A stretch of DNA of 61,458 nucleotides, the filler included, from Hausera hauseri (taxonomy: Eukaryota): assembly GCA_046269625.1 (NCBI GenBank). It is 10 parts of 10 records of this genome, joined end to end, with 100 filler letters (N's around TTAATTAATTAA, not from the genome) between each part and the next. Parts side by side here need not be neighbours in the genome. Positions count along the whole stretch, not along the records: positions 36,228 to 40,804 come from JBJURY010520680.1; positions 40,905 to 45,754 come from JBJURY010414922.1; 8 more parts are not named here. One strand, 5' to 3'. Made by a program: the position numbers and the translations under genes. The notes under the pieces were generated by a model that worked only from the letters and a program-made list of their open reading frames with translations, was not told the origin of the DNA and ran no database searches. The first letter of the stretch is position 1; every line of letters starts with the position of its first letter. Positions 9,160-61,294 of this stretch are shown here, piece after piece.

Positions 9160-10570
9160 TCAAAAATTGCCTAATGCCACAATGATTGGACATCTACTAT
9201 TGTCTATTATTGTCATGCGGACATCCAATATTGTCAGGTACCATCGCCAATCATTCCATTTCCAATCATTCACCAATTCAATTTTCTGCCGATTTTTTAT
9301 ATTATATTTCCACTGTTTTTCCGAATACTGTTTGTCCTTTTCGAAATCATTCATAGCCGATGTTCGAAGATCGGTATTAATTTGATATATGACTGAGTTG
9401 AATTGTCCGGTGGATTTTCTGAACTTTCAATCCATGACGTATAGCCTGCTGAAGAAATTGATAGTAAACAACATACTTTATCCGATTTTCTAAATGAGGA
9501 AATAGTTTTTTCATTTTTCCTTTGCTGTTTCCGAGCACTAGTTGATTCTGGAAGGAATGGAAGTTGATCATGCTCTGGACGCAAGTTTTTTGGATACTCT
9601 ACATCTACGTCAAATATATAGCCAATAGATGAAGTGGGACTGATGTTTAAAATATCTCTTTCCATATCACCGGTCCATGTCCACTGAAAATCCCCATATG
9701 GTAAATAATGTAACATGCCCACCCATACAAATTATTTGCGTCCAAATAAGTTATGAATGATGAATCATTATTTTTGTCGTAATCGGTTTCCATGTACGAT
9801 GGACAGCCTGGCACAATCCTCCACGAATTCCTCTCCAGCATAAGTATCATATCATAATCCTTTATAATTTCCAACTTCCCTCGGGTCTTCTGTAACATGG
9901 CACTCCAGGCCATTCCAAGTGCTGTAAAATAATGCGCTGGATCAACTTTGTGTAATGACATCGTTACATCATGGAATCTTTCAAATATGTCGGTGAGCAG
10001 TAGAACGTCGGTTTTTAAGTACACATCGCTGTACTTACCGAGATTCCGACATGGAAACGCACGCCATACGTTTTCAGCATGTTGGTAATCTTCGTCGGAA
10101 ATATCTGATTGATAAAGTATACTGGAAAGGCATTGTTTCGGTGGGAGTATTGTTTGTTCCAACATATCCCGCCCTGTAATGTACTCATATGGAAATATGC
10201 CTTTTCTCTTGACCAAATTGAACTGGTGGTTATCGGGAAATTGTTTTCTGGTTTCAATAAATCTATCTAGTGGTAGGTTCTTGGCTAATTTATCGAGATT
10301 GCTGCTCATGAATTTAAAACTATCGATAAATCGTAACTCCATCTGTCACACACGTTTCGTAAACGTTATATCTTTCTTGATTGTGGGTTATAACGGTTAT
10401 CCGTCCTTCTGATTCACCGAGTTCCCTAATGAAAAAATGTGAGTTATAACCCGACAAATTGTGAAAAATAACTGGAATAAACCGGACTCGTTTGCATCTC
10501 AAGTATTTTCCTGAATAATGACAATGATCGTGTACTTTGTAATTGTCATCGCTGAACGGATTCTGATAAT
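9160..10570 (-). pseudogene. Maverick/Polinton protein-primed DNA polymerase B (exonuclease/palm region), frameshifted and internally deleted
   Basis: VHDHCHYSGKY, IPVIFHNLSGY, LRFIDSFKFMSSNLDKL, RKGIFPYEY, YLKTDVLLLTDIFE, YLDANNLYGWA, LPYGDF, GYIFDVDVEYP, NDFEKD. Confidence 0.93.
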
Positions 10571-15613: not shown

Positions 15614-16209
15614 NNNNNNNNNNNNNNNNNNNNNNNNNNNNNNNNNNNNNNNNNNNNTTAATTAATTAANNNNNNNNNNNNNNNNNNNNNNNNNNNNNNN
15701 NNNNNNNNNNNNNGCGGATAAACTGTACTACCGCACGCAATCAAAATCAGAATATTTGAAGAAGCACAAGGATCTTTCGCTACAAGCTAAATAAATGGCT
15801 ACAGAATTCAATAAATTAACAGGTAAAAGCCTTGCAAATAGGGTTAACAAGCGTTGACAAGATTTAAAGGCATACGCGGAAAATGAAAAGAATTCAGAAG
15901 ATATTCCACCAATAACAGCATCAGTTGATGAAGAAACCAGCAATGTTGTTGGTTCTAAAATTACTGCATTGGAATTAAACACGGCTCAACCAACAGATGA
16001 ACCATTAAGTACGACTGATACAAAAGCAGATGATAACGCGCCCCTTAATGACAATTTACCAAACAAAGCCACTGACGGTTCTGATCTTTCGAATGTTGTA
16101 GATGAATATGCTCAGCGATTGGCTCTTCTGAATAAGAGAAATCATCCATTGAAAAAAGACTACAAAGAAATTACGAAAAGTCTTTATTGGAATAATCTAC
16201 TTACCAAAG

Positions 16210-16620
16210 TTGAAAAACTCAAAGAAGGCGGAGGAAAAACAGAATATTTTGGCAACAAGTAATATTGATGCTAAAAATGCTAGTGATGAAACAAGTTCAC
16301 ATTTTGCCGCCGAAAATGGCCATGTTGAGGTGTATCAGTATTTGTTTGAATGTAATGCAAACATCAATCATACGTCAGAAGGCGGAAGAACTGTACTGAT
16401 GAAGGCTAGGCGAGCAGGCAATTTAGAGGTTGTTAAACTCCTTGTTAAAAGAGGTGCAAATTTCGATCTATTAACTGATCAAAGAGATCACAAAGCTCTT
16501 AGTTTGGCATGTTCTAACGGACATTGTAAGGTCGTCGAATATTTGCTTAAAGTCAGTGCTAGTCCAAGAATTAAATGGGAAGATAACTGTTCCGTTCTTA
16601 CCGAAGCATTACGAAGCGGA
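16210..16620 (+). pseudogene. Ankyrin-repeat fragment resembling mask/ANKHD1/ANKRD17
   Basis: HTSEGGRTVLMKARRAGNLEVVKLL...DHKALSLACSNGHCKVVEYLL...DNCSVLTEALRSG resembles ANKHD1 HESEGGRTPLMKAARAGH...DHTVVSLACAGGHLAVVELLL...DGSTMLIEAAKGG. It is intronless and cut off at ~16620. Confidence 0.75.
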
Positions 16621-16969
16621 CTTTCCGGGAAACTCGACCACCTTGCATTTTGGTGTCCACCTCGCCGGGGCGAAAGTCCCGACCGTCAACCCTGCGCCGG
16701 GCAGTCGCACGGCGCCTTTCGCATCGGCGCCACATCACGCTCCCAGGCGCATCACTCCTTCCCCTTCTATTTTTTTCTTCAATAATACCCACATTTACAC
16801 AACCACTACATTACATCCACACATTCCTACCCTTCGGACGTCCATTTCTTTTTTACTCAATTTTTCCAATTTTTATCTCACCCATAACTGCACTATCATA
16901 CCTCTCACCGGAACCCTGCCATCTTTCTCAAGCCACATTTGCCTCCAAATACATCTCCGTATCGGTGGT

Positions 16970-17950
16970 GGCACGAACTCTTCGCCAACTATTGACACTA
17001 CGGATAAAACCACCACGAAACTAATACCTGTTATATTGCTCCAAAAACCCACTCTTAAATTTGCTAGCAACCTTTCATCCATTGCCTTTTCCGCTCCTTT
17101 CCCTAATTGCACCGGATTCTTCATTGACAACCAAGGCTCTAGCAAAACTTGGTTGCAATTCCACCAGCTTTGGCTGCAGGCAAATAACATTAACGATTCT
17201 TTACCTAGGGCGCATAATGTTCTTTTCCTACTGCCTAATAACATCAAGACCCGCATTTATAACATCATCGAAATCTTTCAACTTCCAGACCCATATTCGC
17301 AACTTTCTAACGCAGTCCTAAAGATCGCGGAACCTTCCATGGACACGATTATACAACGTTTCTTTCATGACAACGTGATAGGCACCGCAAGGGCCGTCAG
17401 AATTCTTACGTACATCCTTAGCACATCTACATACTCTCGACGTCACCAAAGAACACAACCCAGACCTCCTACGCTTTTATTTCCTCAATGCACTACCTAT
17501 CCAAATCCGGGTCCTACTTACCGTGGTGGACGACTACACGCTGCTTGAGAATTTGGCCGAATTAGCCGATAGGACACATGATGTCCTACACGTAAATTCT
17601 TCACCAGTCGTTTCAGCAGCAGTTGCCGCTAACGATAATACATCCATAGAACAACAAGTTAATCAACTACGTGCTGAAAACATTGCACTACATGCAACAA
17701 TCAACAACATTAATAATAAATTGAACGAATTGTCTCTGTCCCACCGAAAGAGTTTTGCCCCTGACCGCGCCCGTTCTGCGTCTAAAAACCGCTCACCATC
17801 GCTACACGGGTTCGTCGTTCTGCTATTACCACAGCAGATTTAACACTAGTGATCAAAAGTGCTGCCTAGGGTGCAAGTTTTGTAATAAGAATTTTTCCTC
17901 GGACACCGTTATTTGCATCTCCCATGCAAGGTTCAAAAATCTAACATGAA
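16970..17950 (+). pseudogene. Gypsy Gag (frameshifted)
   Basis: DPYSQLSNAVLK, LAELADR, coiled coil, CYYHSRF..C..C. Confidence 0.75.
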
Positions 17951-18099
17951 TGACGGATGTATTGCCTTTCCTTATAATAGTCGTCCTAATTTGCCCTTTC
18001 AAAATAACTAAGTTCGCCGCCAGCAGTCACGGTAAACTCAGGCAATGGCACTACTTCACATTCTCCACGCCGATACGTCTCTTTTGCTGTATTTACTTT

Positions 18100-18420
18100 A
18101 AAGGCTGCAATCAATGCTCCTACAACGCAATTTGTTGACTTTTTCATTGATACAGGTGCAGCGATTTCCTTATTATCACAAACCTTTTCCGTGCAAAATT
18201 CTCCATTCAAACTTAAGCCCTTATACACTGCTTCAGGCCAACCGCTGCACATTTCTGGCATGACTAAACTGTCTTTCACTTTACCAAACTTTCTTTCACC
18301 CTTCCACTGGACGTTCACAGTCGCTAACGTCCAGACGGCAATTCTAGGGTCAGACTTTTTTTCACACTATAACTTACTGGTTGATTGCAGTCAACGATGT
18401 TTGAGGAACGGCACCACTGG
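18100..18420 (+). pseudogene. Retrotransposon aspartic protease
   Basis: FFIDTGAAISLL...WTFTVANVQTAILGSDFFSHYNLLVD. Confidence 0.85.
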
Positions 18421-18839
18421 CGACATTTCTGGACATGGAAATAGCATTTCGACTACCGCGCAGTCGACCGGAATGCGGACGTCAATCTTAAAATGGTCAA
18501 CAAATGATTCGATTTTTATAACGATAATTCCATTCGTAAATTTTTAAATAATAATACTGACATTCGATCGAAGTTCAATGTCGATAACTGGGTACTACCA
18601 CCAACGCAAACTCATTAGACGAAAATACCTCATCCAACACCATTTTCAATTCAACCATCTTACACCAAATACCACTTAACCGCACATCACCTAACAACTC
18701 ACAAATTGCATCTGCTACTACTCAAGCCGTTTCATCACTTCTACCGAATCTTTCACAGTTACCTACAACTTTACAACAGTTCGTCAACACATGATGTCCA
18801 CGCGTACTTAAAAAAGACCGTACCTTTTCTCCCGCAAAC

Positions 18840-20470
18840 AGCACTTTACACCATATAGTTACGCAGGTCAACGTCCAATACGCCAGAAAGTACGGCCTCT
18901 GTAACCTCGCTGTAGGCAGGCCGTAGAAGCCGAATTTCTTGAGCTAGAAAGTTCCCGCATAGTACGCCGTTCCAAATCTCCTTGGTCATCACCTTTACAC
19001 GTTGTACAAAAACGGACGGTACTTTTAGACCTTGCGGTGACTACCGACAGCTGAATAACTTGATTATCATGGATGCATACCCTTTACCACTCATCAAGGA
19101 TATTTTGCATCGTCTCAATTCAACCATTATCTATTCAGCCATTGATTTAGTTAAACATACCATTAAATACCGGTAGTACCCGACGACATTGAAAAAACCA
19201 TAGTAACTACTCATTTTGGCCTCTATGAATATCCATTTATGCCATTCGGTTTGCGGAATGCCGCCCAAACTTTTCAGTGGCACATTGATTCAATTCTTTT
19301 CGATTTCCCGTTTGCACACCCTTATATCGATGATATTCTAACCGTTTCATCTTCGGCCAAACAACATGAAGAACACCTTCGCGCAATATTCCAACGTCTT
19401 AACCACCATAATCTCCAAGTCAATTTCGACAAATGCCATTTCTTCAAAAAGCGCTTTAAGTTTTTAGGCCACGTTATTTCACCAGACGGTCATTCTCCCC
19501 AACCAAACCGAGTCGAAGCTCTTAAAAATATCCAGTTGCCACGTACAACCACCGAAATGTGCAGTTTCCTTGGCACACTACACTTTGTACATAAATATGT
19601 ACCATATTGCTCCGAATTGACAGCACCATTCGCACATCTAAGCGGCGGCGAAAAACATCAGCCAATCCAGTGGACACCTGAATTGGTTGACAAATTTGAT
19701 AAGCTATGCGAAGGAATTAAGACAGTCGATATTCTCGTTTTCCCCAAGCCTGATGCAGAACTTATCCTTACTACAGATGCGTCAACCACTGCAGTAGGCG
19801 CTGTGCTCCACCAGATCTACAAGGGAGAAAATCAACCACTAGAATTTTTCTCTCGCAAGCTAACATCCCCTAAAACCAGATTTCCAACGTTCGATCGAGA
19901 ACTATTAGCCATCGTTCTCGCTTTAAAGCATTTCTCCCACCTACTTGTCGCTCGTCGTTTTACCATACAGACTGATCACAAGCCTTTGCTAAACATCATG
20001 ACTATGAAACATCCTTCCTCACGCCAAGAACGACAAATATCATATCTGTCGACATTCAACTTTGACATAAAACATATTAACGGTGTCAATAATTTGGTTG
20101 CCGATTTTTTATCTAGGACGATAGGTTTGATTAATTTTTCACCAATCTTCTCTCAAGTACAACTACAACAAAACCAGCCACCTCCGGACATGCTTAAATC
20201 TTTCCGATCTTACAACATCATTGACGGTGTTGCTTTAGACACTTCCAAACCAGGTCATTCCGTAATAATTCTTGCACCACCTTTACAACGGCAAGCGTTT
20301 AACAGTGTACACTCACTGCATCATCCTGGCGCTAATGCAACTCTTCGCTTACTCCACCGGCAAGTAATATGGCCGACCATGCGTTCTGATGTTCAAGCGT
20401 GGGTTAAGGAGTGTGTGGCTTGCCAGAAATTTAAAATCACCAAACATTTGAAGCCACCACTTTATCATTT
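18840..20470 (+). pseudogene. Gypsy Pol: reverse transcriptase, RNase H and integrase zinc finger
   Basis: ORF 19239-20470 is intact over the RT C-half and RNase H; the 5' RT part is frameshifted. Confidence 0.95.
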
Positions 20471-28134: not shown

Positions 28135-30341
28135 TACATATAGTATTTAAATAGTGGATCCGTCATTCTATTGCCTTCGATTCTTCAGATTTTCATCCAC
28201 AGCACTTTCTGATTGTAGATGAAATGTACATGAATATTTTCATAGTTGGATGTTTGGCACCACAATGATAGTTCCTTTGTAAAAACCGTTTGTTAATATA
28301 AACTACATGTTCATTAAATATTAGGTAAATAGAGCACTCGAAACAGCTCTTTTAGCATGAGCTGAGCACGCAGTTAGATAAATATTTTTTCACAAAAAAT
28401 AATTATATTTATATTGACCGTAAAAAACAACTGTGAACTTTTTATAATTTTTCAAGTGAAACCATCCCTCCAACAAACCTGAAACCAAACACATTACAAT
28501 TCTCACAAATAACCTTTAAGGCTGTCTTCAAGATTGTCTTAAATGATAGTTGGTCACAACACTGTAATTTTTCATGTTCATCTGTTGAAAACAATACCTT
28601 TTGTTGTAACTTCGAATTATCAGAGATTACACTCCATTAAGAAATGACGTTTCCTGAATTATTGCCATTTACGAAAAGCGACTGAATAACATCCTCTACT
28701 ATCGAACAAAATGATTTTGCCATTTAAAATATTTTAAAGAACTCTGATCAAATCTAAAATTTCATAATTCGGTTGTTACGTCTGAAGAATCACATTGAAA
28801 AGCACATTGATTGAAGATACTTTCGACATTTGTCTGAACAGATTTTATTTTACGTAATTCGAATTTTTCACAGATTTTATTATCTGTCCAATAATCGATA
28901 ACTTGCAATGGGATATATGACATCGTGTGTGATATACGATATTCCATAGTTAAAAGATTGAATACTATATTCCATATGCTTGAATGATGATTGATGTATT
29001 AAGTAAAGAAGACTTTGCTCGGCAAAGTCGGAGGATCGAAGTCCTTGAGTTCATCTGCTTGGTTTTCCATCATAATTGAAATAAGTCCAAAGAGTTTTTA
29101 AAGTGTTTATTTATCCATNNNNNNNNNNNNNNNNNNNNNNNNNNNNNNNNNNNNNNNNNNNNTTAATTAATTAANNNNNNNNNNNNNNNNNNNNNNNNNN
29201 NNNNNNNNNNNNNNNNNNCTGTTTATTACTATATAGCGTCTAATAGTAGTATGTTTTAATGCCAACTTGCAATTTCTTTTAATAATTATTTTACAAGTTA
29301 CTGTAAAATATAGTTAAATCATAATTGGTAATTCTTAATTCCGTTATTAATTACTTCCTAAGTTTGGTGAACAATGTGTTATTGATTTATTACAACCGGT
29401 ATATATAATGTAAATGGCACACACACACATTGTATAGTGTAAGAAATTAAATCCTGTTTTGTATGTAACATTTATATACAACAGAACTACTTTGTTTTGC
29501 AATAGCAATGGTAGAATTAAAGGCATTACAAATAATCTTAAGAACATAGCGTTCATTTGACACGTTAAAACAAATTTCCAAACATTTCTCCAATCCATGT
29601 ATATTACATTATATCGTAGTCAACATATAAATGACTGTATTTTAATTCAATGCCACTTTTCTGAAGATGAATGAAATGCCAAAATCATGTTAGATAAAAA
29701 CATTTTTATTTAAAATGATGTATTATTTTATTCCATATTCAATGTTACAGATAGTATATTTTACAATTTTTGCAGTAAATTAATGTCAATATACAATAAA
29801 ATAAATATTTTCGGCGACAGTTTATGAGGCATTAAGGCAGATTTGATTTTTTTTCTCATATTCAAAATAATTTGCATATAATATTTGACAAAGATTTATC
29901 TACCTATTGATATAAAATTGTTTGACATTCTTGACTTTTAAATTTAGAGTGTAAAATTACAATTATACCATCCGGTGAATTATGTTTTTGACGAATTATT
30001 CAATAGTTATTTTCTATATTTTATTAAAAGTTTAAATTAAACTTGTAATAATAAAGACATCACTTGAAATTTATATATAAAATACATTTGATTAATTTTG
30101 TATTTGCGCAATTTTCATTGTCAACAACACTTAATTTAAGCAATATATTTCATGTTTGTACATTATGTTATTGACGAGTGTGAAAACTGACTCCAGAAAC
30201 ATCACTATAACATAATCAAAAGCTTTAAATGCTTCAAAATTGATCATTTAGTGGACAATATAGTTGAAAAAGAGATAAAAAAACTAAAAATTTAAAAAAT
30301 TACATATTTATTAACCAAATAAGAAATTTTATACATTAACA

Positions 30342-31748
30342 TCAAAATAAATTGCGTATGGATTGTACCTTCTGATGGCTCTCATTTAGAATATCAAAAT
30401 CGGAAAGAGCCTCCGAATAAAACGATTGCAATTCATTGAAAGTTTCAATGCATTCATTTCTCAATTCTGAACTAATTTCTTTCAGTGACTTTGAATTATG
30501 TTTTCGAAATTCACTATTTCGAATATCAATAAATAGTGCATTAATTTCCTGTGTAGTTTTCTTCACTAGTTCTTCTATAAAACACGAAACCTCTAGCATA
30601 TTTTCAATTTCCCAATATTGGTCATCATTATTTGAGTACCGAATTTTGGCCGCAGAATAAGAGCAAATTGCATTCTCTATTGCAATTTCAAAATACTGAT
30701 ATTTATGTTCATTAAGTAGGTTGACTGCATCATGAATGTTCAATGTTTTTTTCCAACGACCGTAGCTAAGAGTATCATTTATGGCACTTAAGATGCCCGG
30801 CCTTGACCTCCTAATATAGTCAATCATTTTAATTTGTAAAAGGTTAATATTCTTTTTTAATATCAAAGGATTTGATGATATTGAACAAGTAATGTTACAA
30901 TCATCAACAAAATTATTTTTGCATCGAAAACAAAACGGATAAGAGGACTTATTAGGATTCCGATTCATACACATTACTTTATCGCAATATGCGCAACTGA
31001 AACTCATTAAATTTTCATTTGTTTGCATTTCGGACCAAAGTTCGGAAAACATGTTGCTAATCACAAATATTCCTTTCATGTTTTTCATCAGTTCAGAAGA
31101 AAGAGCGTGAGATACATTACTAAGTTCTTGAGGATATTCTAGAACATGATTTAGCATAACAAAATTGATAGAGAGATCTCTTATCAAAGTTGCTACAATG
31201 AATAAATTTTCAATCTTTATACACCCGTTTATGCTACATTCGGACCTTAATATTGGCCGTTGATCATAAAATTTTTCTCCAACATCCTTCAATATGTCTC
31301 TCATTGCTTTGCATTCATTGTTTAATACGTATTGCTGAAATTCATAGATTTTGTTTCGAAAATTATTCCGACTTTGGTGACTATCTAATACATCAAACAC
31401 AGAAGAAGCATCACAAATATGCATGGTCATTGCTGTTAGATAAGCAAATTTCTCAAACGTCTTAATGACATTTCTTAAAATATTTTGACCTTTACTGTTC
31501 CAGAAGGCTGACACAAGATTCTCGCCTATTTCTCTATAGATCTTGCTACTGATACACTTATTATAATGATTAAATGTTGATATTGATTCAAATACCAATC
31601 TATCATAGGGACATGATACCTTTTCTTCAATCATTTTGTAAAAGCATTTCTCGCAAACTGAGTGTTTGCAAGGATACATAATGACATAATGCTTGGTATC
31701 ATATGTTTCAAAACAAATTCCACATTCATCATACGTAATATTCGACAT
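30342..31748 (-). CDS. Intronless RING-finger (C3HC4-like) protein, 468 aa, with a second Cys cluster and helical C-terminus
   Basis: CGIC...PCKHSVCEKC...CPYDR; uninterrupted ORF in AT-rich DNA; internal CAYC...C...CFRC. Confidence 0.85.
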   Translation of the reverse strand: MSNITYDECGICFETYDTKHYVIMYPCKHSVCEKCFYKMIEEKVSCPYDRLVFESISTFNHYNKCISSKIYREIGENLVSAFWNSKGQNILRNVIKTFEKFAYLTAMTMHICDASSVFDVLDSHQSRNNFRNKIYEFQQYVLNNECKAMRDILKDVGEKFYDQRPILRSECSINGCIKIENLFIVATLIRDLSINFVMLNHVLEYPQELSNVSHALSSELMKNMKGIFVISNMFSELWSEMQTNENLMSFSCAYCDKVMCMNRNPNKSSYPFCFRCKNNFVDDCNITCSISSNPLILKKNINLLQIKMIDYIRRSRPGILSAINDTLSYGRWKKTLNIHDAVNLLNEHKYQYFEIAIENAICSYSAAKIRYSNNDDQYWEIENMLEVSCFIEELVKKTTQEINALFIDIRNSEFRKHNSKSLKEISSELRNECIETFNELQSFYSEALSDFDILNESHQKVQSIRNLF

Positions 31749-34700
31749 GTATAAATCTGATATAGATCATATATATGCGTTGCTTAATGACAATGAATAT
31801 TTCTAATTATAATATTTTTTTATTTAATATTGGTCAACATTAATTACGATTTGTACTTGATTAGCCATCAGTATATAGTTCTTTGTGTTTCGCTAAATAA
31901 TAAAATATGAAAAATATACCATTACGTAACATTGTTTTGAAATAAAAGGAGAATCATTTGCAATTAATTTCCCTTCATTTAGGAATATTATCGGAATTTT
32001 TATCATATAAATTATTTTTGTTCCTATTCAGAAACTTATTTTATTATTGATTAAAAAGATACAGTAGTAAAACCAATATATCACTGATTAGTGATAATTT
32101 ACAATCGAAATATTGGACTTTTATCATGTTGGTACGTTTTGCTTATGTGATTCTCCGTTTTAACATTTTCTAATACAAATTTAACATAGTTAATTGCTTA
32201 ACGATATAATTTTTTCTAAATTTTAATGAAATCATGTGAATAAAATAATTAGAATGTGCATACATACAACTATTGTTTAAATCAATCAATTACTGAAGCA
32301 GAATTCTGCAAAGAAGAAAGTCATACATCACATATCATATCATAAAAACATGTATACAACAATATAAATTTAAACACAATCATTTTTGGAAATATGATTG
32401 ACACAAACAAGATGCAAGACAAAGTCAAGGATGAGGAAATGTTAGAAAATGGTAGAAAATCAAAATGGAATATTATAAATATTTGTAATTACAATTTAAA
32501 CGTTTTAGAAACAATTCATGTTTGATTGGATTGCGCAAAATTACGCTAAGAATGTTTTGGAAACCGGCAAATTTCCTGTCAACAATCAAGAATTTCTCAT
32601 GAAAGGATACATTAAAATAAAAATTTATCCCGATGGTGAAGATGTTGCTCAATATACTTATTTTGACCGTCTTTTTTCAAATTTGTAAAGAACCAAATGA
32701 TTGTCAATTAAATCTGTCACTATAAGAAAACATAGAGATTTCGTTATTAGACAAAATGGAGAAAGCGGTTGTTGGACAAAAACTTTTAACTAACCAACGA
32801 ATGGCTTGTTTTATGAGACCGATTGAAGATTGCAATATAGGAAGTGGTAATTTTAAATTTATATCACTCAAAAACTTCAACAATTATTTATCTGAAAATC
32901 ATAATAAAATGAAAATTCCATTCGAAATGATATATGAAGATAAAAGTGAAGTTGAGTAAGAAAATGCAGACATTATACGGATGCGAAAATGAAAACGTGA
33001 TATTCAACGTTCGATGAAACTGATTATTGGATATAATATTGAAGAGAGAAAATGTCTTTACGATTTATCCGAATATTTAAGCAAATAAATGACACATTCT
33101 TATTCAAATAAGCTATTGTCAGAATTAGATTTCACTTTATTTTTATTTTGTTGCTAAATTATTCAAACGATATCATCTTAATGTATTACATGAAAAATAC
33201 ACTTAGATGTATTGTCAAACAATCCATTGCTTGAAAAGTTAAAATTTCAAAAATTATTACGAATATATTTCCTGCGAGATATTGAGATTTATCATCGACA
33301 AGCCTAATCTCAATGTTTAGCAAGATATAGTAACAGCGTTAAATAAACTTTTCTAAAATATTTAAAAGTTTTTCAATGTGTTTTCAATACTTTTGAAAGT
33401 TGCACACTTGAATTGGAAAATGCTTGGAATTTTCTTTTAGTGTATTTATTAAATAAGTTTGTTACATTGGACAAAGGTTATAGTTTACATTCGTAAATTC
33501 ACTTCAAATACGTAGATTTAACAGTAAATTGATATAGTTTAGTTATGTTTTACATAGTTTGTGAAACAAGTTTATAGTTTATATTAAATTTATAGATGGT
33601 GTATAGAACATAATTTTAGAAAAGTTACATGCATTTACTGTACTATTTATTAATAATAATTTATTGTTAATACCGTGAATTCAATGCTCGGTGAAATAGG
33701 TAAATTGAGTAAAACTAATTCATTACATACGTATTTGCAAAATTCATTACCCAAAACTCATTTCATTGAACATTTTATTCAGTTTATTTCAACATACTTC
33801 ATGAAATAAAATCATGAGATTAGCATTAGATGTTCCTCTGTTTACAGCCTTTGACATACAGAACATTCGACGAAAACTTCAATCTTAATTTCACATTTCT
33901 TGAACATTATTAAATGTTATGTGATAAATATTTACAATGGATAATTTAATAAAAGTAATTCGATTGAAAACAATATCAATTTTTGGCACTATATCACTTT
34001 AAACAATCAAATAACAAATTTTTCTTTTGTGTCTGTTCCTATCTGTTTATTACTATATAGCGTCTAATAGTAGTATGTTTTAATGCCAACTTGCAATTTC
34101 TTTTAATAATTATTTTACACGTTACTGTAAAAAATAGCTAAATCATAATTGTTAATTATTAATTCCGTGATTAATTACTTCCTACGTTTGGTGAACAATG
34201 TGTTATTGATTTATTACAACCGGTATATATATATATATTGAAAATGGCACACACATACACATTGCATAGTGTAAGAAATTAAATCCTGTTTTATATGTAA
34301 AATTTATATGCAACAGTACTACTTTGTTTTGCAATAGCAATTGTAGAATTAAAGGCATTACAAATAATCTTAAGAACATCATTTTGCTTTGACACGTTAA
34401 AACAAATTTCCACACATTTCTCCAATCCCTATATATTACATTATATGGCTATCAACATATAAATGACTGCATTTTAATTCAGTGCCACTTTCCTGAAGAT
34501 GAATGATATGCCAAAATCATTCTAAATAAAAACATTTTTATTTAAAATGGTATATTATTTTATTCCAAATTCAATGTTACAGATAGCACACTTTACAATT
34601 TATGCAATAAATTAATGTCAATATACAATAAAATATTTTCGACTACAGTTTATGAGGCATTAAGGCAGATTTGATATTTTTCTCATATTCCAAATAATTT

Positions 34701-35149
34701 GCGTATAATTTTGACAAAGATTTATCTACCTATTGATATAAAATTGTTTGATATTTTTGACTTTTAAATTTAGACTGTAAAATTACATTTACACCATCCG
34801 TTGAATTATGTTTTAGATGAATTATTCAATAGTTATTTTCTATATTTTATTAAAAGTTTAAATTAAACTTGCAATGATAAAGAGATCAATTGAAATTTAT
34901 ATATAAAATGCATTTGATTAATTTGGTATTTTCTCGATTTTTATTGTCAAAAACAATTTACTTAAACAATATGTTTCATGATTAGTGCATTATGTTATTG
35001 ATCAATATGAAAAACTGACTCCACAAGCATCACGATAACATAAAGAAAAGCTTTAAATGCTTCAAAATTGATCATTTAGTGGACAAAAAGACTATAAAAT
35101 AAAAAACAAATACATTTATTAACATCATAAGAAATTTTATACATTAACG

Positions 35150-35895
35150 TCAAAATAAATTGCGTATGGATTGTATCTTCTGATGGCTCTCATTTAGAAT
35201 ATCAAAATCGGAAAGTGCTTCCGAATAAAACGATTGCAGTTCATTGAAAGTTTCAATGCATTCATTTCTCAATTCTGAACTAATTTCTTTCAATGACTTT
35301 GAATTACGTTTTCGAAATTTACTATTGCGAATATCAATAAATAGTGCATTAACTTCCTGTGTAGTTTTCTTTACTAGTTCTTCTATAAAACACGAAATCT
35401 CGAGCATATTTTCAATTTCCCAATATTGGTCATCATTATCTGAGTATCGAATTTTGGCCACAGAATAAGAGCAAATTGCATTCTCTATTGCAATTTAAAA
35501 ATACTGATATTTATGTTCATTAAGTAGATTGACTGCATCATAAATGTTCAATGTTTTCTTCCAACAACCGTGGCTACAAGTATCATTTACGGCACTTAAG
35601 ATGCCCGGCCTTGACCTCATAATATAGTCAATCATTTTAATTTGTAAAAGGTTAATATTCTTTTGTAATATCAAAGGATTTGATGATATTGAACAAGTAA
35701 TGTTACAATCATCAACAAAATTATTTTTGCATCGAAAACAAAACGGATAAGAGGACTTATTAGGATTCCCATTCATACACATTACTTTATCGCATTATGC
35801 GCAACTGAAACTCATTAAATTTTCATTTGTTTGCATTTCGGACCAAAGTTCGGAAAGCATGTTGCTAAACACAAATATTCCTTTCATGTTTTTCA
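35150..35895 (-). pseudogene. Truncated duplicate of the RING gene (3' half) with premature stops
   Basis: Near-identical to 30342-31087; GAA>TAA at ~35495 and TAT>TAA at ~35795; the 5' part is replaced by a satellite. Confidence 0.9.
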
Positions 35896-39970: not shown

Positions 39971-41026
39971 TGAATGAGTTCAGTAAAGTTCAGTTTATAT
40001 AGGTGTAACAGAAATGCAGTAATGGTAGATCTTTTAAACACTTAACTACCGATCACTTAACATCAAAGGTACGTAATTTAATGCTGTCAAACTCACCTGT
40101 GGTTTTTGTAATTCTTCCATTAATTTTAAATAATCGTCGCTCAATGTACAAATTTAATCACCGCCACCTAATGACCGTTCAATTTTGGTTCAATGTTGCA
40201 CACTCATATCGGGTATTCCCGTTAATTCCAGGTGGCACATGGCAGCTGTTGCAAGCAGAGAGACATACGGAGATTGCCAATATGTGCATTAGTTCAATCT
40301 TTGTTGTTAATAGATATGTTTTCATCCTTCCCTGTTGGCTTTTGTTTGCTCAGATGGACGAATTTTTGGAGGTAATCTTGCACACCAAGTCGCTAAATTT
40401 AGTAACAATGTCTCCCGGATATCAGTTCTTTGCCCTTGTATACACATCCGGTTTAAACTGGATTCGATTTCTGATTTTGCGCTGAGAGAGGAGAGACGCA
40501 CGTTTGTATTCTTTTGACATTTATCTATAGCTATATACGATTGTCATTCATTTTGTTCATTTTCATCCACTGTTGTAGCATTCATACTAACATTTTATTG
40601 CATTTAATTTTCACTTTATAACTAGAGTGTACCATTATTTGCTTTTTAGGCTTTATATTTATAATTGTTCATTCAAAATGTTGGCATTTGCCAAGAAATG
40701 TTTATTTTGTGCTTGTGATGATTATGTAGCAACTACTTTCGTAGGTCAAAGACAGGACTGGGAGATGATTGGAGACTTCAAAGATCAGGAGACTTTGGAA
40801 CACANNNNNNNNNNNNNNNNNNNNNNNNNNNNNNNNNNNNNNNNNNNNTTAATTAATTAANNNNNNNNNNNNNNNNNNNNNNNNNNNNNNNNNNNNNNNN
40901 NNNNTATAGAGAAGGTCTGGAGAACTTGGTCACCACAGGTAAAATACCAGGAAGTAGAAGTAGTTGACAAAAAAGAAAGAAGTGTCTGGATGGTTTGCAA
41001 GAATGGCTCGGAAGTCAATCAACTGC

Positions 41027-41400
41027 AGAGATAACTGGGGACACCAGGAATCGCGAGAAATGCAGCACGGCACCTGAAGATGAGTAGCTATGGATGAGCT
41101 ACTCATTGAAAACTTTAAGACCAGACTTAAGAAACATAGCGTACTTAGAAAACTGAACAAAGTTAACTGTGCGTTTAAAGGAAACAAAATGTTGATAAAC
41201 ACGTCAGCAGTTTGTGCAGGTAATTGGGGTTGCGGTGCATTTAGAGGCGATTAAGAACTAAAAACTAGCATTCAGTTAATGGCAGCGAGCGCAGCAGGTA
41301 GAGACATTTACTATCCCACATTTGTGATGATAAATTCAACGACGAGTTACGACAGTTTCACCATGACCTCATTGAAAAAAACGTGAATATAAAAAATGTT
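41027..41400 (+). pseudogene. Poly(ADP-ribose) glycohydrolase (PARG) catalytic-domain C-terminal part, intronless
   Basis: RDNWG...VAMDE...LRKLNKVNCAF...[38 protein letters not shown] matches PARG VAIDA...RELNKAYCGF...[26 protein letters not shown].TF. Confidence 0.88.
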
Positions 41401-43720
41401 ATACCCATAGCCAAGACCTATAATAAACATATACTTTACATAGCAGTTAATCACAAATCGTTATTTCACTTCATCATCAAGAGGCAACGCAAGAAAAACC
41501 TGAACACACAAGAAAAGAAGCCCGATCCTGATGCAGTAGAAACCACGAATACTGAGTCGCAGAGAAACCTAAAATATGTCGTGATGCCTGTGAATGAACA
41601 GAAAACAAGATCAGAAGTAATAATGAAAGTAGTAGCAATTGAAGAAGTCAAGCAGAAATTACAATAAGAAAATGAGAAAACAAATGTTAAACCCAATGAC
41701 ACGGAAGAACGATTCAAAGCCGAGATACAGATACTGGAGATACGAGTGAAAGATCTCAACGATGAAATCAAAATGTAAAAAGGGAAGTGCCAAGATGCAG
41801 CAGTCAAGAACACACGTTTAAACAAAGAATTAAAATAAGAACAAGAAACAAAAGGCAAACCCAAGAACTCAACAATATATTACAAGCAGAAATATGTACA
41901 TTACAAAGCCATGTAATGCAAATAAAACACAAACCTCAAAAAGTAGCGAATTCGAAAAAAAAAACTTAAAAATGTGGTAGCAGAATTAACTAACGAACAA
42001 CACAGACACTTGAAAACTAGTGAAAATTAAAAACTGAAATAGCAGAATACAAAAATTAAATAAAAGACAGAGTAGCTAAACTTATAGAAGAGATGATGCT
42101 GAAAGACAATGAAAATCAGACATGACAACAAGAAATACTGCCGTTACTGAAAGGAAAAGAGCAATTACTTAGAGACGTACAACACAAGTTAAATAAAACA
42201 GTCGAACTGAAGATGAGTGCACAGAACTTACAAATAAGATTGATAAACTGGAAAAGGAAATGGAGATACAAGTGCCATGGAGAAGAAATAGATTGATAAA
42301 TTTAGAAATTAGAAAAGAAAATCAACTGGCTTCAAACAGAATTACACGAAGAGGAAAGATGTCATGTAAAGAATTTAGATCTGCACATCCAGGAAATAGA
42401 TGAACTGCAACAACACCAGAAAAAGAAAATGAAAAAAACATACAAAGAGAAAAGTCGATGCCGAGATTACGAGCTGGCAATGAAAATTAATATATAAAGC
42501 CAGCAATAATGACACAAGTGACGACGGTGAGCACCACCGGCAACAAGTATAAGAAACCAAACAAATGAGAAACACACCTAAGCCAACGCAGCCACAAAAC
42601 AGAAAGCAGAATGTAGTGCAAAAGAATAATAAGGTGACAGAATCTGCAAGATAACAAAATCAAGCAACAAGCAAACAGAGAGATAATCGCCAAATTGAAG
42701 CTCTGGAAACGCACGAAACAGCGGATAGTAAAGATCCGATCCAACAAACGGGAGTTACGAAACAATATGGCAGTCAGAAAAATACAAAGCATACCTGGCG
42801 GGAATCGCTAACAAATGCTGATTTGTATTGTCCGCAACATAATGAAAGTGAAAGAAATATTAGAAAGGAGATAGCAGGCACAGCAAAAAGTCATGGTTAT
42901 GAACTCGTAATTTCGAAAAGCGTTGGAAGAAAAGATTTAGATTGATTTATTTTCGCGGAAACGGGAAATTGATAGGCTTGCGATGCAGTACTATAATGTA
43001 CATTTTAGAAGATGATGAGAAAATAGTCCATTACATAAAACCAAGAAAGTCTGCATAGGAATCAGATGTTGATAAGACAGAGGCAGAATGTTTCATATCA
43101 AAGGTACTGTTTTGCTAAGATTTATTCCAAGTATATGAGAAATCGGCTACAATACACTCTTCAAAACGCTTCATGCTCAAGTTTACGTGATACAGAAAGA
43201 AACCGAAGATTATGAATAACAATGACAACCTCTTTATAGACCGGTTCAAAAACATGCTCCAAACGATACAGGAAAATATCTTGTATCATAACATTTTTTT
43301 CAATAGAGACAGGGGCAGAACAGGAGATACACCACATAAGAAGCCAGTTGGTTCAACAACAATACCAACGTCCAAAGCTATCATGATCAAACAAGAAACA
43401 ACGAAGAAGAACACAGAGACAGAAAAAAGAAATTTGAATTAATGAGAGAGTGAAAGAAAATTATCTTTTTTGTGAAGAAAGGAGCATATTGTGATAGAAT
43501 ATGGATTAAAACTGTCAGCATAACGAAACTACTAAAGCAATAAAACCCCAAACCAGTACATCAGGTCATAACAACAACCAACTGCGCATATCTGAACTTG
43601 AGTTTAGCTAAAACTTACGAGGGGCAATAAGAAGGAAGACCAAGTTGGGAAAGACACTTGCTCGCTGACATTCGGTACTGATAGACATGTTTACGACAAA
43701 GAATGTCGCCTCTCAGTTTA
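41400..43720 (+). pseudogene. Degraded coiled-coil/Gag-like region with degenerate zinc knuckle and protease remnant
   Basis: A long purine-rich E/K/Q coiled-coil coding tract; YLFCEER(G)HIVIEY at ~43462-43503 (CX2CX4HX4C with two TGT>TAT changes and a frameshift); LLADI-GTD at ~43658-43683. Confidence 0.5.
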
Positions 43721-44285
43721 TTCCACATTGGATAACAAAGTTTAAGTTTGATGTGTAAGGTTTCCACTAGGAATTTAATTCTTGGTGATAATAATTCTGA
43801 AGAAGTCGGTGAAGAATTCAGTGTGTGGATTATCGAAAGAATTGGAGTGGAATTCAAAGTCATCTATCAAATAGTTGGTTCGAAGAATCATCTGGAGCAG
43901 TTAAATTGAGATTTCTTCTTGAATTATTGTCTATTGCAATTGGCTGAAGTGAAATATTCTTGAGGAATTATTTTTTTTATGTGAAGTTCTTAGTTACGAT
44001 TACTAAGGACATCGGAATTAAAGCAATGTTTTTCAGCAAGACACAGAAAACCGTGAATACAGTTCTTATTTATTGCATAAACATAACCTGGACTAAAGTG
44101 TAAAGAGAACTGGTAAATCCGTTGGGATAAGCCATCAACTCTGTCGGACAACTTACAAGGCAGGGCAATTCAACAAATATGGTCTCCTTAATACACGCCA
44201 ACTTTTCTCTGGCGCCAAACTCATGAAGCCTGGCAGACGGAATTGCCATTTGGTGCCGATACAGTGTCTCAGTCTCTGTTTCTTT

Positions 44286-44385
44286 CTGTATGTCTTTCTG
44301 TGTCTGTCAGCTTCTCGCAGCATCTCTCTGTGTCTGTCAGCTTCTCGCAGCGTCTCTCTGTGTCTGCCAGCTTCTCGCAGCGTCT
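44286..44385 (+). repeat. ~30-bp tandem repeat x3
   Basis: TCTCTGTGTCTG(T/C)CAGCTTCTCGCAGC repeated. Confidence 0.85.
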
Positions 44386-44490
44386 TTAAAACACTTAACT
44401 TCCAATTTATAACGATAAATATCTTTATCCCATTAGTCGGTGCTGAACACGTCATCTCATCAACTCTGGAGATAACAAAGGGTCGTGTTT

Positions 44491-44676
44491 TGTAACGTTA
44501 CCTCATACTCTTGGCCTTATTTCTGCCTGTAATTGAGAAAATAAAAAACAATCTGTGTCCACTGTTTTCCACAGCGCCATACACACGTGCACCTTTCTCT
44601 GACTAAAAAAGAAAACAATCGTTGCCTCCGCTGTTTTCTACAGCGATGTACACACATTCACCTTTAAGGTATTACA
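44491..44676. mobile_element. Possible solo LTR (TGTAA...TTACA) with an internal ~70-bp duplication
   Basis: Terminal TGTAA/TTACA inverted ends; no TSD seen. Confidence 0.3.
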
Positions 44677-45594
44677 CAATTACACTCTCTCCTTCACCTC
44701 ACATATCAAATGAACAAAACCATCATCAGACGTTTATATGTTCCAATTACAAAACCAAAAATGGATGAACAGAACACAATCCAACAGTTAATACATTTAT
44801 ATTAAAAACAGCAATCAAACAGCGTCAATTTCACATACAACAATTTCTTGTCACCAGTAAGTATACATCTTTATACAACAGCAAGCAAACTAAAAATCAA
44901 ATTGGCATTCTGCGTCATTTTCGAACACAAACATGTCATGTCGACAACACATGTACATTTTTATAAAATACAGCAGCAAATTGAAAATTAAAACATCGTA
45001 CAACAGTAATTTTGAGACAGACATAGCGTCATCAATCAAATATAGATATAACAAACAGTAATTGTTAGTAATATCAATTATCTGTACTGGGTTGTTTCGC
45101 CCCTAATATCTGTGATTAACGCCACGTTTTAAATTTCACTGCTATAAAGTATCCTGCAAGATTTGTATATAAACATATATATGTTCCTGTATTATTAAAT
45201 CTGTAAGCCAAAGTCTATATGATTACCATTACTATAAAACTCTTCATCGATAAATTCATCTCTAAATCAATGTCTATAAGGATTACCACGATTACGGTTA
45301 TATCTGGCTGATGAGATATCTGGAACATGGAAATATCTTTTGTATAAAACACAGATAAATTACTTCTCAGATCTGTTTTTAAAATGTCTGAATACAATCG
45401 ATGGTACTCTCGATCACAGGATGTAACATCTTTACTATTAATTCTGGCGTCGTTGGACTGTTGAATATCTAAAGCTCATTTATTTCTTGGCTAAGACACT
45501 GTTACATCTGTCACATGTTCTACATGGTCAACTGCTCTTTCATAGGAATTAGTGTGCCTTAAATGTCACTGGATAAATTAGTTGGATTATTAAT

Positions 45595-45754
45595 AACTTA
45601 TTTGTCTTGTCTTCTCTTGTCTTTGATCCACAGTCATCGAGCGTCAGCTCTTGTTGACTTTGATGCCAATACGTGGCACTGTGCAGTTTTAATAAGCTGT
45701 TGTGGGCTGCCATATAGGATATTGTCTATGTTAGGGTTGTCAGGTAGCAGAGTC
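45595..45754 (-). mobile_element. Possible non-LTR retrotransposon 3' end
   Basis: LLPDNPNIDNILYGSPQQLIKTA is followed by a stop and a short AAGAC-type tandem tail. Confidence 0.4.
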
Positions 45755-59547: not shown

Positions 59548-59916
59548 AGGAATTGGACAAATGGGAACAACTGACTGTTGCCGACGCTCTTGAGCCGGTG
59601 AATTTCGAAGAAAAAGAATATGTTGTTAGACAGGGTGAAGATTTCTTTATGATTATCGAAGGTGTTGCCAAAGTCTTTCAAAAACCATCGGATTCAGATG
59701 AAGATATTGAAGTTGGAACATTGGGTCCATCGGATTATTTCGGTAATCCATCTCACGTTTGTCTGTTACTATCGGGTTTACTCAGGTGAAATTGCTCTTT
59801 TGCTGAACCGCCCTAGAGCTTCAACAGTTCAGGCTTGTGGACCATTGAAATGCGTCAAACTCGACAGAAAGCGATTTGAGCGTGTATTGGGAAGCTGTGC
59901 GGAAATCCTGAGTTAG
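59548..59916 (+). pseudogene. PRKAR1: cAMP-dependent protein kinase type I regulatory subunit, CNB-B fragment (exons 59548-59742, 59786-59916)
   Basis: [16 protein letters not shown]...GPSDYFG|[14 protein letters not shown]...[16 protein letters not shown]; 43-bp intron. It lacks the PG residues after QGE and stops early (ILS*). Confidence 0.85.
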
Positions 59917-60583
59917 GATTTTCAGAATTATCTGTTGCACTTTCTGAAATCATTTTTATCACATACAAGGCCCTAGATTTTATGCATGATTCATTGGATA
60001 ATTCATCTTCATTCATATCCAATAGTGTCACAGCTTCAGTGTTACCAGAACTGAAACTCGTAAACCCAGATGTTAGAATTTGTGAATGATTTGTTGATGA
60101 ATAATATTCTGTAGCCAGTTTCAATATTTGCAATTTAAATGATCTCGAGATAGAATTTTCTGATAGAATTCTTATGATAGAAAAAGCCTTTAAGTTCACA
60201 TTCAATTCTTTCTCTACCGAATCCCGATTTGATTCGATGAATTGGGGATTTTTAAGAGTGACTAACACTAGATTAAAGTTACTGCTTAGTTCTTTCAAAA
60301 AGCACATAACAACCCACAGATTATCTGACTCAATGGTTTGATCCAATCGATACTTTGATTTTGCCATCCATACGTTACATTTGTGCATCAAATTCATTGC
60401 TTTACTCCATTCGTTACTATTTACATTTCGAATGAAATCCTGAAATTTTGACTGTTCTACTACTCGTTGTTGATTAGATCCATAGGTGACAGGTTCGGAT
60501 TCAGAGAAGCAGAGCTTTTTAATGATTTCCATCAACTCTGTAAAATAATCTACAGCCTTGTATTGATAATACGCTCTATTCAT
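59855..60583 (-). CDS. Unknown intronless 242-aa ORF whose last ~20 codons run antisense into the PKA-R fragment
   Basis: A long ORF in AT-rich DNA with an ATG start; no family recognised. Confidence 0.5.
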
Positions 60584-61294
60584 AATTCCAGTTATCTAAC
60601 GTATTAACTGATTGTTATATTAATGAAATCTGATTTATGTCATGAACTACATTATTTTCTGTTTAGCGATAAACATGAATGTTATTATGTTTAGGAAACA
60701 TTATTTCAATTGAAAATTATATCATATTTGGTTATGTATGATCAAATTTCATTTATGTAATGGTCATTCTATTTAATTAATTGTTTTGTTATATTATCAT
60801 GTTAAAAAAGACAGGAAATCAAATATAAATACGTGATCTTAATGATACAAAAACCAGAAATTCTGATACGTTTTAACGACGATTTATCTTTATTTATCCA
60901 AATCTTGTAAGTTGATGCAATTGTATTTATTCTTAATTGTATTAGAATTATAATTTTATTCTTGAGTACGTATATTTTTGATCAAATAACTAAGTAATTA
61001 AAATGATGTAACATGCCTAGAATGAAGATAAAGCACAAAAACTGATGTAGCCTGCTGAATGGATAAACAGCTGAAGGAAGATGAGAACAGGGATACTAAA
61101 ATGGCCAGCAGAACCCTCTGCTGGTAGAAGACTATAACTGCAAAACAACATGTTTTATGTGCTCTCACTATAACAACACCTTAAGGTCAGAGCTACATCA
61201 AACTCACATTATGAGGAATATTGCTTATCATGCTGTGAGAGCAGTGTAACAAACTTAAGTCAGCTGCTGTTGTGCAAAACGGATTTTTCTTTAC

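Follow-up and report, generated by a model that had tools for sequence, protein, structure and literature searches.

Can a retroelement carry its own eraser of ADP-ribose? The question is raised by one contig (40905–45754) of the window, i.e. the whole 61,458-nt stretch of DNA from Hausera hauseri that was analysed. In this contig, the first-pass annotation had read a piece of PARG running into coiled-coil, Gag and protease remnants, and it had proposed the capture of PARG by an LTR element, as a putative counter-defence or integration aid. That proposal survives in part: the PARG piece is likely RNA-derived, multi-copy and joined to a coiled coil in other copies, but the Gag and protease calls were not supported, and the PARG copy could not be connected with any reverse transcriptase (RT), integrase or LTR. 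The best explanation of the locus, held with a confidence that stops just short of even, is that it is a decayed copy from a family of retrotransposons in which PARG served as an accessory domain.

The window consists of contigs of 4.6–8.6 kb strung together by nine identical 100-nt linkers. As these linkers join separate contigs, neighbouring contigs should not be taken as neighbours in the genome. Most of them contain transposon debris. Data on copies come from a single sequencing run, X1, which is possibly the window's own source sample and possibly includes other organisms; the summed contig depths of X1 are not copy numbers. Other context for the locus was obtained from protein searches and from profiles built for this analysis. 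The features of the contig are collected in Table 1.

Table 1. Features of the PARG-bearing contig (positions along the window)
Feature	Position	Strand	Basis or remark
Whole contig (4.85 kb), PARG piece at its start	40905–45754		Truncated by repeats and linkers
End of a very-high-copy repeat that truncates the PARG gene	40905–41083	+	X1 depth; PARG alignment begins at 41084
PARG macro domain, C-terminal part with GNWGCGAF	41084–41323	+	One in-frame stop
PARG C-terminal helices, second frame	41326–41490	+	Crosses the Biomphalaria intron site (~41392–41395) uninterrupted
Linker in the frame of the PARG tail, stop-free	41491–41664	+	ORF 41302–41667
Multi-copy, decayed coiled-coil coding region (~49% A) with several stops and frameshifts	41665–42450	+	Heptads, base make-up, diverged contigs
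A-rich decayed coding region, where a capsid would sit	42560–43450	+	No Pfam, word-search, PDB or profile match
Degenerate zinc-knuckle-like site, 2 of 4 ligands intact, one frameshift	43462–43503	+	Post hoc pattern
LADxG-like site, split by a frameshift	43661–43700	+	Not recognized by copia or gypsy protease profiles
CA then TGG, primer-binding-site-like word	44247–44263	+	Pattern scan
Possible BEL/Pao integrase-end remnant	45421–45510	+	PF18701 (DUF5641), E 0.052, sub-threshold
End of a second very-high-copy repeat, closing the contig	45608–45754	-	Summed depth 959,859 in 45603–45754

The PARG piece is genuine but spans only 41084 to ~41490. It matches the Pfam macro domain PF05028 over 41084–41251 (E 7.2e-12, 45.8 bits versus a curated cut-off of 26.3), and a profile of 20 animal PARGs finds 41084–41323 (E 1.1e-32) and then, past a frameshift, the C-terminal helices (41326–~41500 in another frame, E 3e-8). 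A frameshift-aware profile alignment of the piece scores 144.9 versus a null of 14.2 (0/30 shuffles). The alignment starts at the residues VAMD, and the ~135 residues covered are the last part of the catalytic domain, from 68 residues past the expected QEE position to the domain end. The reading frame is broken by one stop and one frameshift. PARG had initially been drawn from 40905 and its start has to be moved, as the homology begins only at 41084. The summed depth in X1 is 650,987 over 40905–41066 versus 13–35 just downstream and 5–225 inside the contig, so that this stretch is a separate high-copy repeat unrelated to PARG. We take this repeat to resemble the 3' end of an RTE-type LINE. An RDNWG stretch (41027–41045) that BLAST aligned with PARG was rejected because it lies inside the repeat and requires an 8-residue gap. 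The catalytic GGG-x-QEE motif had been reported missing, and no such loop (GGG-x6-8-QEE) was indeed found in this contig or in the preceding one, the only two pattern matches being in unrelated contexts. The catalytic half, that is the QEE loop and the helical domain PF20811, is hidden by the repeat insertion and the gap, which does not establish its absence from the gene.

Among 1.84 billion representatives, the best named matches to the PARG piece are snail and bivalve PARGs, save two matches inflated by repeated domains, and identity to snail PARGs is 38–46%. In a 56-row tree, the piece sits on a long branch in one clade together with Physella, Biomphalaria and Elysia (96/92), and omitting Biomphalaria does not part it from Elysia and Physella (95/91). 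Its inclusion in a Macrostomum clade is rejected (p-AU 0.033, Macrostomum being the one flatworm genus of the tree). By these sequence comparisons, the piece groups with the PARGs of heterobranch snails. The Biomphalaria gene models P0025 and P0185 end at one same site and P0184 continues past it, while the short ORF P0186 opens with foreign residues just ahead of the next exon. These gene-model ends suggest that the Biomphalaria PARG has an intron there. Aligned with these four sequences, the PARG of the window reads through the site without an intron; relative to Biomphalaria, it therefore has the loss of a parental intron that characterizes a retrocopy, and it is likely to be RNA-derived. 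The intron-free PARG signature claimed at first holds, on the Pfam match, the animal profile and this straight read. As the PARG C-terminus is likewise intron-free in three genomic loci (L126, L131 and L176), the intron loss is informative only if the host PARG resembles that of Biomphalaria.

The PARG piece does not stand alone. In X1, 36 contigs were placed on 41086–41900, 15 of them being less than 90% alike (8 pieces listed). One copy covers the PARG motif over 41197–41321 with 20 differences in 125 nt (84% identity) and rejoins the window at 41485, its 375-nt contig leaving no space for an intron (contig and joint were paired by their equal depth, 5.2). Another covers 41198–41307 with 13 differences and a 1-nt gap (88% identity). 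As the former has no space for an intron and the latter has its own frameshift, neither is an intact intron-bearing host gene. PARG is chained to the coiled coil in two X1 contigs; in a contig of depth 8.69, the PARG tail (~41456–41520) is linked to 41666. A single-copy PARG would have told against a mobile element, and at least two other intron-free copies, 84–88% alike in the motif, were found instead. Several diverged copies of the same architecture, as a mobile family would have, are thus present in X1 (as diverged contigs and bridging joints), their dispersal being a separate matter. On the thin evidence of these contigs, the fusion of PARG and coiled coil is present in several old copies. 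A near-identical X1 contig without 41363–41770 (408 bases) was also observed and corresponds to a deletion allele or a recent duplicate.

The differences between copies suggest that this fusion probably evolved as a protein. Two 30-nt loose ends of X1 contigs (2 of the 6 listed, 21 in total) match the window at 17/30 and 18/30 positions. They contain neither gaps nor stops, and of their 9 conserved codons, 7 show synonymous differences only (a by-eye comparison of 60 nt). In the coiled coil, 13 of the 25 differences listed fall at third codon positions (p 0.04; 11/21 before an indel, p 0.056), whereas the PARG part shows no such bias (2 of the 12 listed); this tally rests on 40 listed differences out of 73, 37 of them counted. 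Up to 6 X1 contigs cover the coiled coil versus 3 for the PARG part. At the junction, the frame of the PARG tail stays open without any stop to 41664, where the A-rich coiled coil follows. About 135–145 nt of the linker are skipped or unalignable in two other X1 contigs (joints 41517>41653 and 41520>41666). In three pieces within 41707–42422, the heptad a/d positions are 54–69% hydrophobic versus 16–23% elsewhere (best of 7 registers, no null distribution). The coding strand has 37–49% A, which resembles the Burro-like element of the next contig (40%) and differs from the gypsy pol and ankyrin pieces of the window (29–31%). About 2 kb of coiled coil had been announced on this strand: the in-frame run into a heptad-rich coiled coil is retained, but its length is reduced to ~0.8 kb. 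No match to the tail (41500–45600) was found in any of 234 proteins.

Further downstream, the Gag and protease assignments of the first-pass annotation could not be upheld. A Pfam scan of the plus-strand frames gave no match to a gag, knuckle or protease family at E ≤ 0.5–1, and none of the marks of BEL/Pao (DUF1759 Gag, three knuckles, DUF1758 protease) appeared at this threshold in any plus-strand frame, with a sensitivity reduced by frameshifts. Profiles were made from copia and gypsy elements of public contigs and run with frameshifts allowed; 13 retroelement loci were inspected for them, 5 of which gave gag rows and 4 protease rows (63 other loci were left out), and the copia gag-protease profiles hold 8 and 24 sequences. 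A frameshift-aware copia gag-protease search scored 20.2 versus a null of 17.0 ± 2.3 (6/100), and fuller copia profiles scored 16.6 and 15.0 versus 16.3–16.5, while held-out copia controls reached 74–257 in 8/8 cases (intact elements, none known to be molluscan). The gypsy retropepsin profile likewise remained at chance (12.7 versus a null of 11.8, 64/300), its 6 held-out controls scoring 21–63. The gypsy capsid-type gag profile gave 17.7 versus 16.1, a test without power, as controls lacking a knuckle reach just 15–29. As for the degenerate CX2CX4HX4C knuckle, the exact motif is absent in every plus-strand frame, a loose pattern with 2 of 4 ligands finds a site in 40/40 shuffles, and a tighter pattern, fitted after the site was seen, matches only 43462 and occurs in 13/300 shuffles. 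The protease-like LADxG occurs in 10/40 shuffles when taken alone, and the protease profiles do not recognize it. The post hoc knuckle followed 90–330 nt downstream by a LADxG-like site is found jointly in 1/300 shuffles, the one test that speaks for this pair.

Other searches of this region were also negative. A word search with 42948–43520 gave 0/166 candidates at E ≤ 1, and PDB searches gave nothing better than E 0.5. Atlas features of two stop-free stretches (the read-through of 42948–43520 being left out) reach 0.82 at most. Resemblances to the Gag of copia, gypsy and BEL that had been noted by eye, as well as a minus-strand gag at 44380–43745, were not supported by further tests, and a single-sequence fold prediction with a pLDDT of 32 was disregarded. 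Beyond the sub-threshold DUF5641 remnant, no RT, RNase H, integrase, paired LTRs or target-site duplication was found in the 4.85 kb of this contig, which is cut by repeats and linkers. The contig holds 9 primer-binding-site (PBS)-like words, so the one at 44247 may have arisen by chance. The repeat that closes the contig is presumably a LINE-like tail. The association was also sought from the PARG side. No gag family was detected in 53 long PARG proteins, nor in the 37 PARG proteins scanned out of 150, and the downstream frames match none of 84 PARG loci (the best 80 of at least 184 confirmed loci and 4 viral ones). Scans of viral contigs with the PARG piece, with a copia motif and with the gypsy pol of the window gave no match. 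Long proteins combining PARG with retroelement enzymes, i.e. P0203 (Chara) and P0201 (catfish), were set aside as probable gene-model chimeras.

The closest known analogues are the giant gypsy-like LTR retrotransposons Burro/GYPSM1 of planarians, which encode BIR, MATH, BCL2, SUMO and ankyrin domains and a Smc-like coiled region in one polyprotein (PMC6431247). As in the PARG–coiled-coil fusion, a host-type domain is joined to a coiled region. However, the domains listed there do not include PARG, and the Gag of Burro is N-terminal whereas PARG and the coiled coil would here precede the knuckle. The layout of Burro, with an env between Gag and protease, occurs in the next contig but not in the PARG contig. 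That separate contig (45855–52856, plus strand) shows a knuckle tail (45857), a long helical ORF, a Monjiviricetes-type fusion glycoprotein (E 2.6e-16) and then a retroviral protease (E 0.0014), together with ubiquitin-like and dUTPase-like stretches seen by eye only. Five pieces of its ORF gave no match to the PARG contig; the protease/dUTPase piece gave one unexplained score in 16 tests (20.0 versus a null maximum of 17.9, ending at 43110).

LTR-mediated retrocopies of animals, as described by Tan et al. 2016 (PMC5131818), consist of intron-free pieces of host mRNA, possibly chimeric, in frame and in a retrotransposon context. The PARG piece is similar in that it is likely an intron-free host-mRNA piece in such a context. 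It differs in that the flanking LTR segments and microsimilar switch points of these retrocopies are not established for the window, and in that its copies do not look recent but old and constrained as protein. In bdelloid rotifers, the LTR elements Vesta and Juno and the Terminons encode coiled-coil ORFs as well as additional enzymes, namely a GDSL esterase and a DEDDy exonuclease (PMC5408684); these extras are separate ORF3s, no ADP-ribose enzyme is among them ('ADP' has no occurrence in the text consulted), and the authors saw no clear departure from neutrality. Compared with canonical metazoan PARG (PF20811 and PF05028), the window piece has the same C-terminal macro half with GNWGCGAF but is broken, cut N-terminally, devoid of the Biomphalaria intron and extended into a coiled coil rather than ending. 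None of the present tests allows the PARG unit to be assigned to copia, gypsy, BEL/Pao or Burro. Its carrier may be an LTR element, as the analogy with Burro and the weak order of knuckle and protease would suggest.

The PARG–coiled-coil unit might instead be passive cargo, the 3' part of a host PARG transcript having been template-switched, along with fragments of further host mRNAs (e.g. from a coiled-coil gene), into an LTR element and multiplied without benefit. Template-switch stitching is a known process, as PMC5131818 reports. Elsewhere in the window, a PBS-like word (16646) terminates an ankyrin piece devoid of introns and lying ahead of a gypsy gag-pol, the word at 44247 is comparable, and cargo would account for the failed gag tests. 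However, neutral drift should be even, whereas the copies are 84–88% alike in the motif and ~57–60% in the loops, a contrast that the 80% threshold itself favours. The frame is kept, differences in conserved codons are mainly synonymous (by eye, 60 nt only), the in-frame junction is common to the copies, and no repeat was found in common with the other contigs of the window. We consider this origin unlikely, though still deserving some weight.

A host gene family appears improbable. An old PARG retrogene would have gained a long coiled-coil tail and expanded as paralogues, the window copy being a pseudogene amid transposon debris. This would explain why selection is seen, why the intron is missing and why no gag/pol signal appears, and some animals do have intron-free PARG C-termini while Haliotis has more than one PARG. 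Yet canonical snail PARGs stop 92–136 residues past the motif, long mollusc PARG paralogues are extended in front of the domain and form a separate clade, and no protein found matches the tail. The higher X1 coverage of the coiled coil than of the PARG part also argues against such a family. Most doubtful is that PARG was an accessory gene of another mobile carrier (e.g. Mutator-like transposon, Polinton or integrated DNA virus). Large DNA viruses (L001, L002) encode PARG, as do group II baculoviruses according to PMC4346127, and Atlas features of 42655–42939 lean towards FAR1/AFT/ZSWIM3 types (0.80 at most, a lead only). But an Atlas score of 0.8 is reached by a third of shuffled proteins, Pfam gives no support, the viral PARGs are distant from the window copy in the tree, and neither a transposase nor a terminal inverted repeat was seen.

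For the reading that we prefer, a decayed member of a PARG-bearing retrotransposon family, the following history can be drawn. A reverse transcriptase would have switched onto a host PARG mRNA, which would have put the PARG coding sequence upstream of a coiled-coil structural protein and in frame with it, within the polyprotein of a retrotransposon. The family would then have spread while retaining PARG under selection. Its working copies would possess the catalytic loop, and their PARG might strip poly(ADP-ribose) from the nucleoprotein of the element or from the integration break, thereby blunting PARP signalling. Later, the PARG part would have been interrupted by a high-copy repeat, and further remains of transposons would have gathered downstream. 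A narrower claim, which is possible but decidedly tentative, is that of a retrotransposon lineage whose Gag-like, coiled-coil polyprotein regularly begins with a host-derived and catalytically active PARG, maintained there by purifying selection.

Both RNA and DNA viruses bear ADP-ribose erasers directed against host PARPs, according to PMC10789625 and PMC4346127. No report of a retroelement PARG was found in searches of the open-access literature, and neither PARG nor macro occurs in the main text of a paper on mollusc LTR elements (PMC6238403). If such an active lineage exists, its PARG would be the first poly(ADP-ribose) eraser encoded by a retroelement and would suggest that PARP signalling restricts retrotransposition in invertebrates; if its host is a flatworm, a snail-type PARG would also have moved between phyla on the element. 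A transposon family that keeps PARG under selection would provide evidence from nature for an effect of ADP-ribosylation on retrotransposition, as well as a testable enzyme. As cargo or as a host paralogue, the unit would be an ordinary pseudogene.

Several minor observations were made along the way. Uninterrupted PARG genes are present in three viral contigs (L001, 3041–4003; L002, 7953–9077; L004, 8001–8879), two of which are giant-virus bins, and in P0204 PARG is joined to a histone domain. Eukaryotic copia contigs (L005–L125) occur in many prokaryote genome assemblies, likely as contamination. In the window, a plus-strand region (15714–20470) carries an intron-free ankyrin-repeat piece (16153–16782), with the PBS-like word at 16646, ahead of a gypsy gag-protease-RT-integrase; this piece presumably resembles ANKHD1/Mask. 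On the minus strand, 9647–10345 encodes a piece of protein-primed DNA polymerase B (PF03175, E 1.2e-5), possibly a Polinton remnant, and a 246-codon ORF (59855–60595) with a weak match to the APC1 C-terminus (E 0.0008) and no PDB match is possibly a piece of host cDNA. Lastly, the region 29219–35381 contains direct repeats ~4.83 kb apart with 91–96% identity, and a 474-codon RING-finger ORF on the minus strand (30342–31766) starts within this repeat unit.
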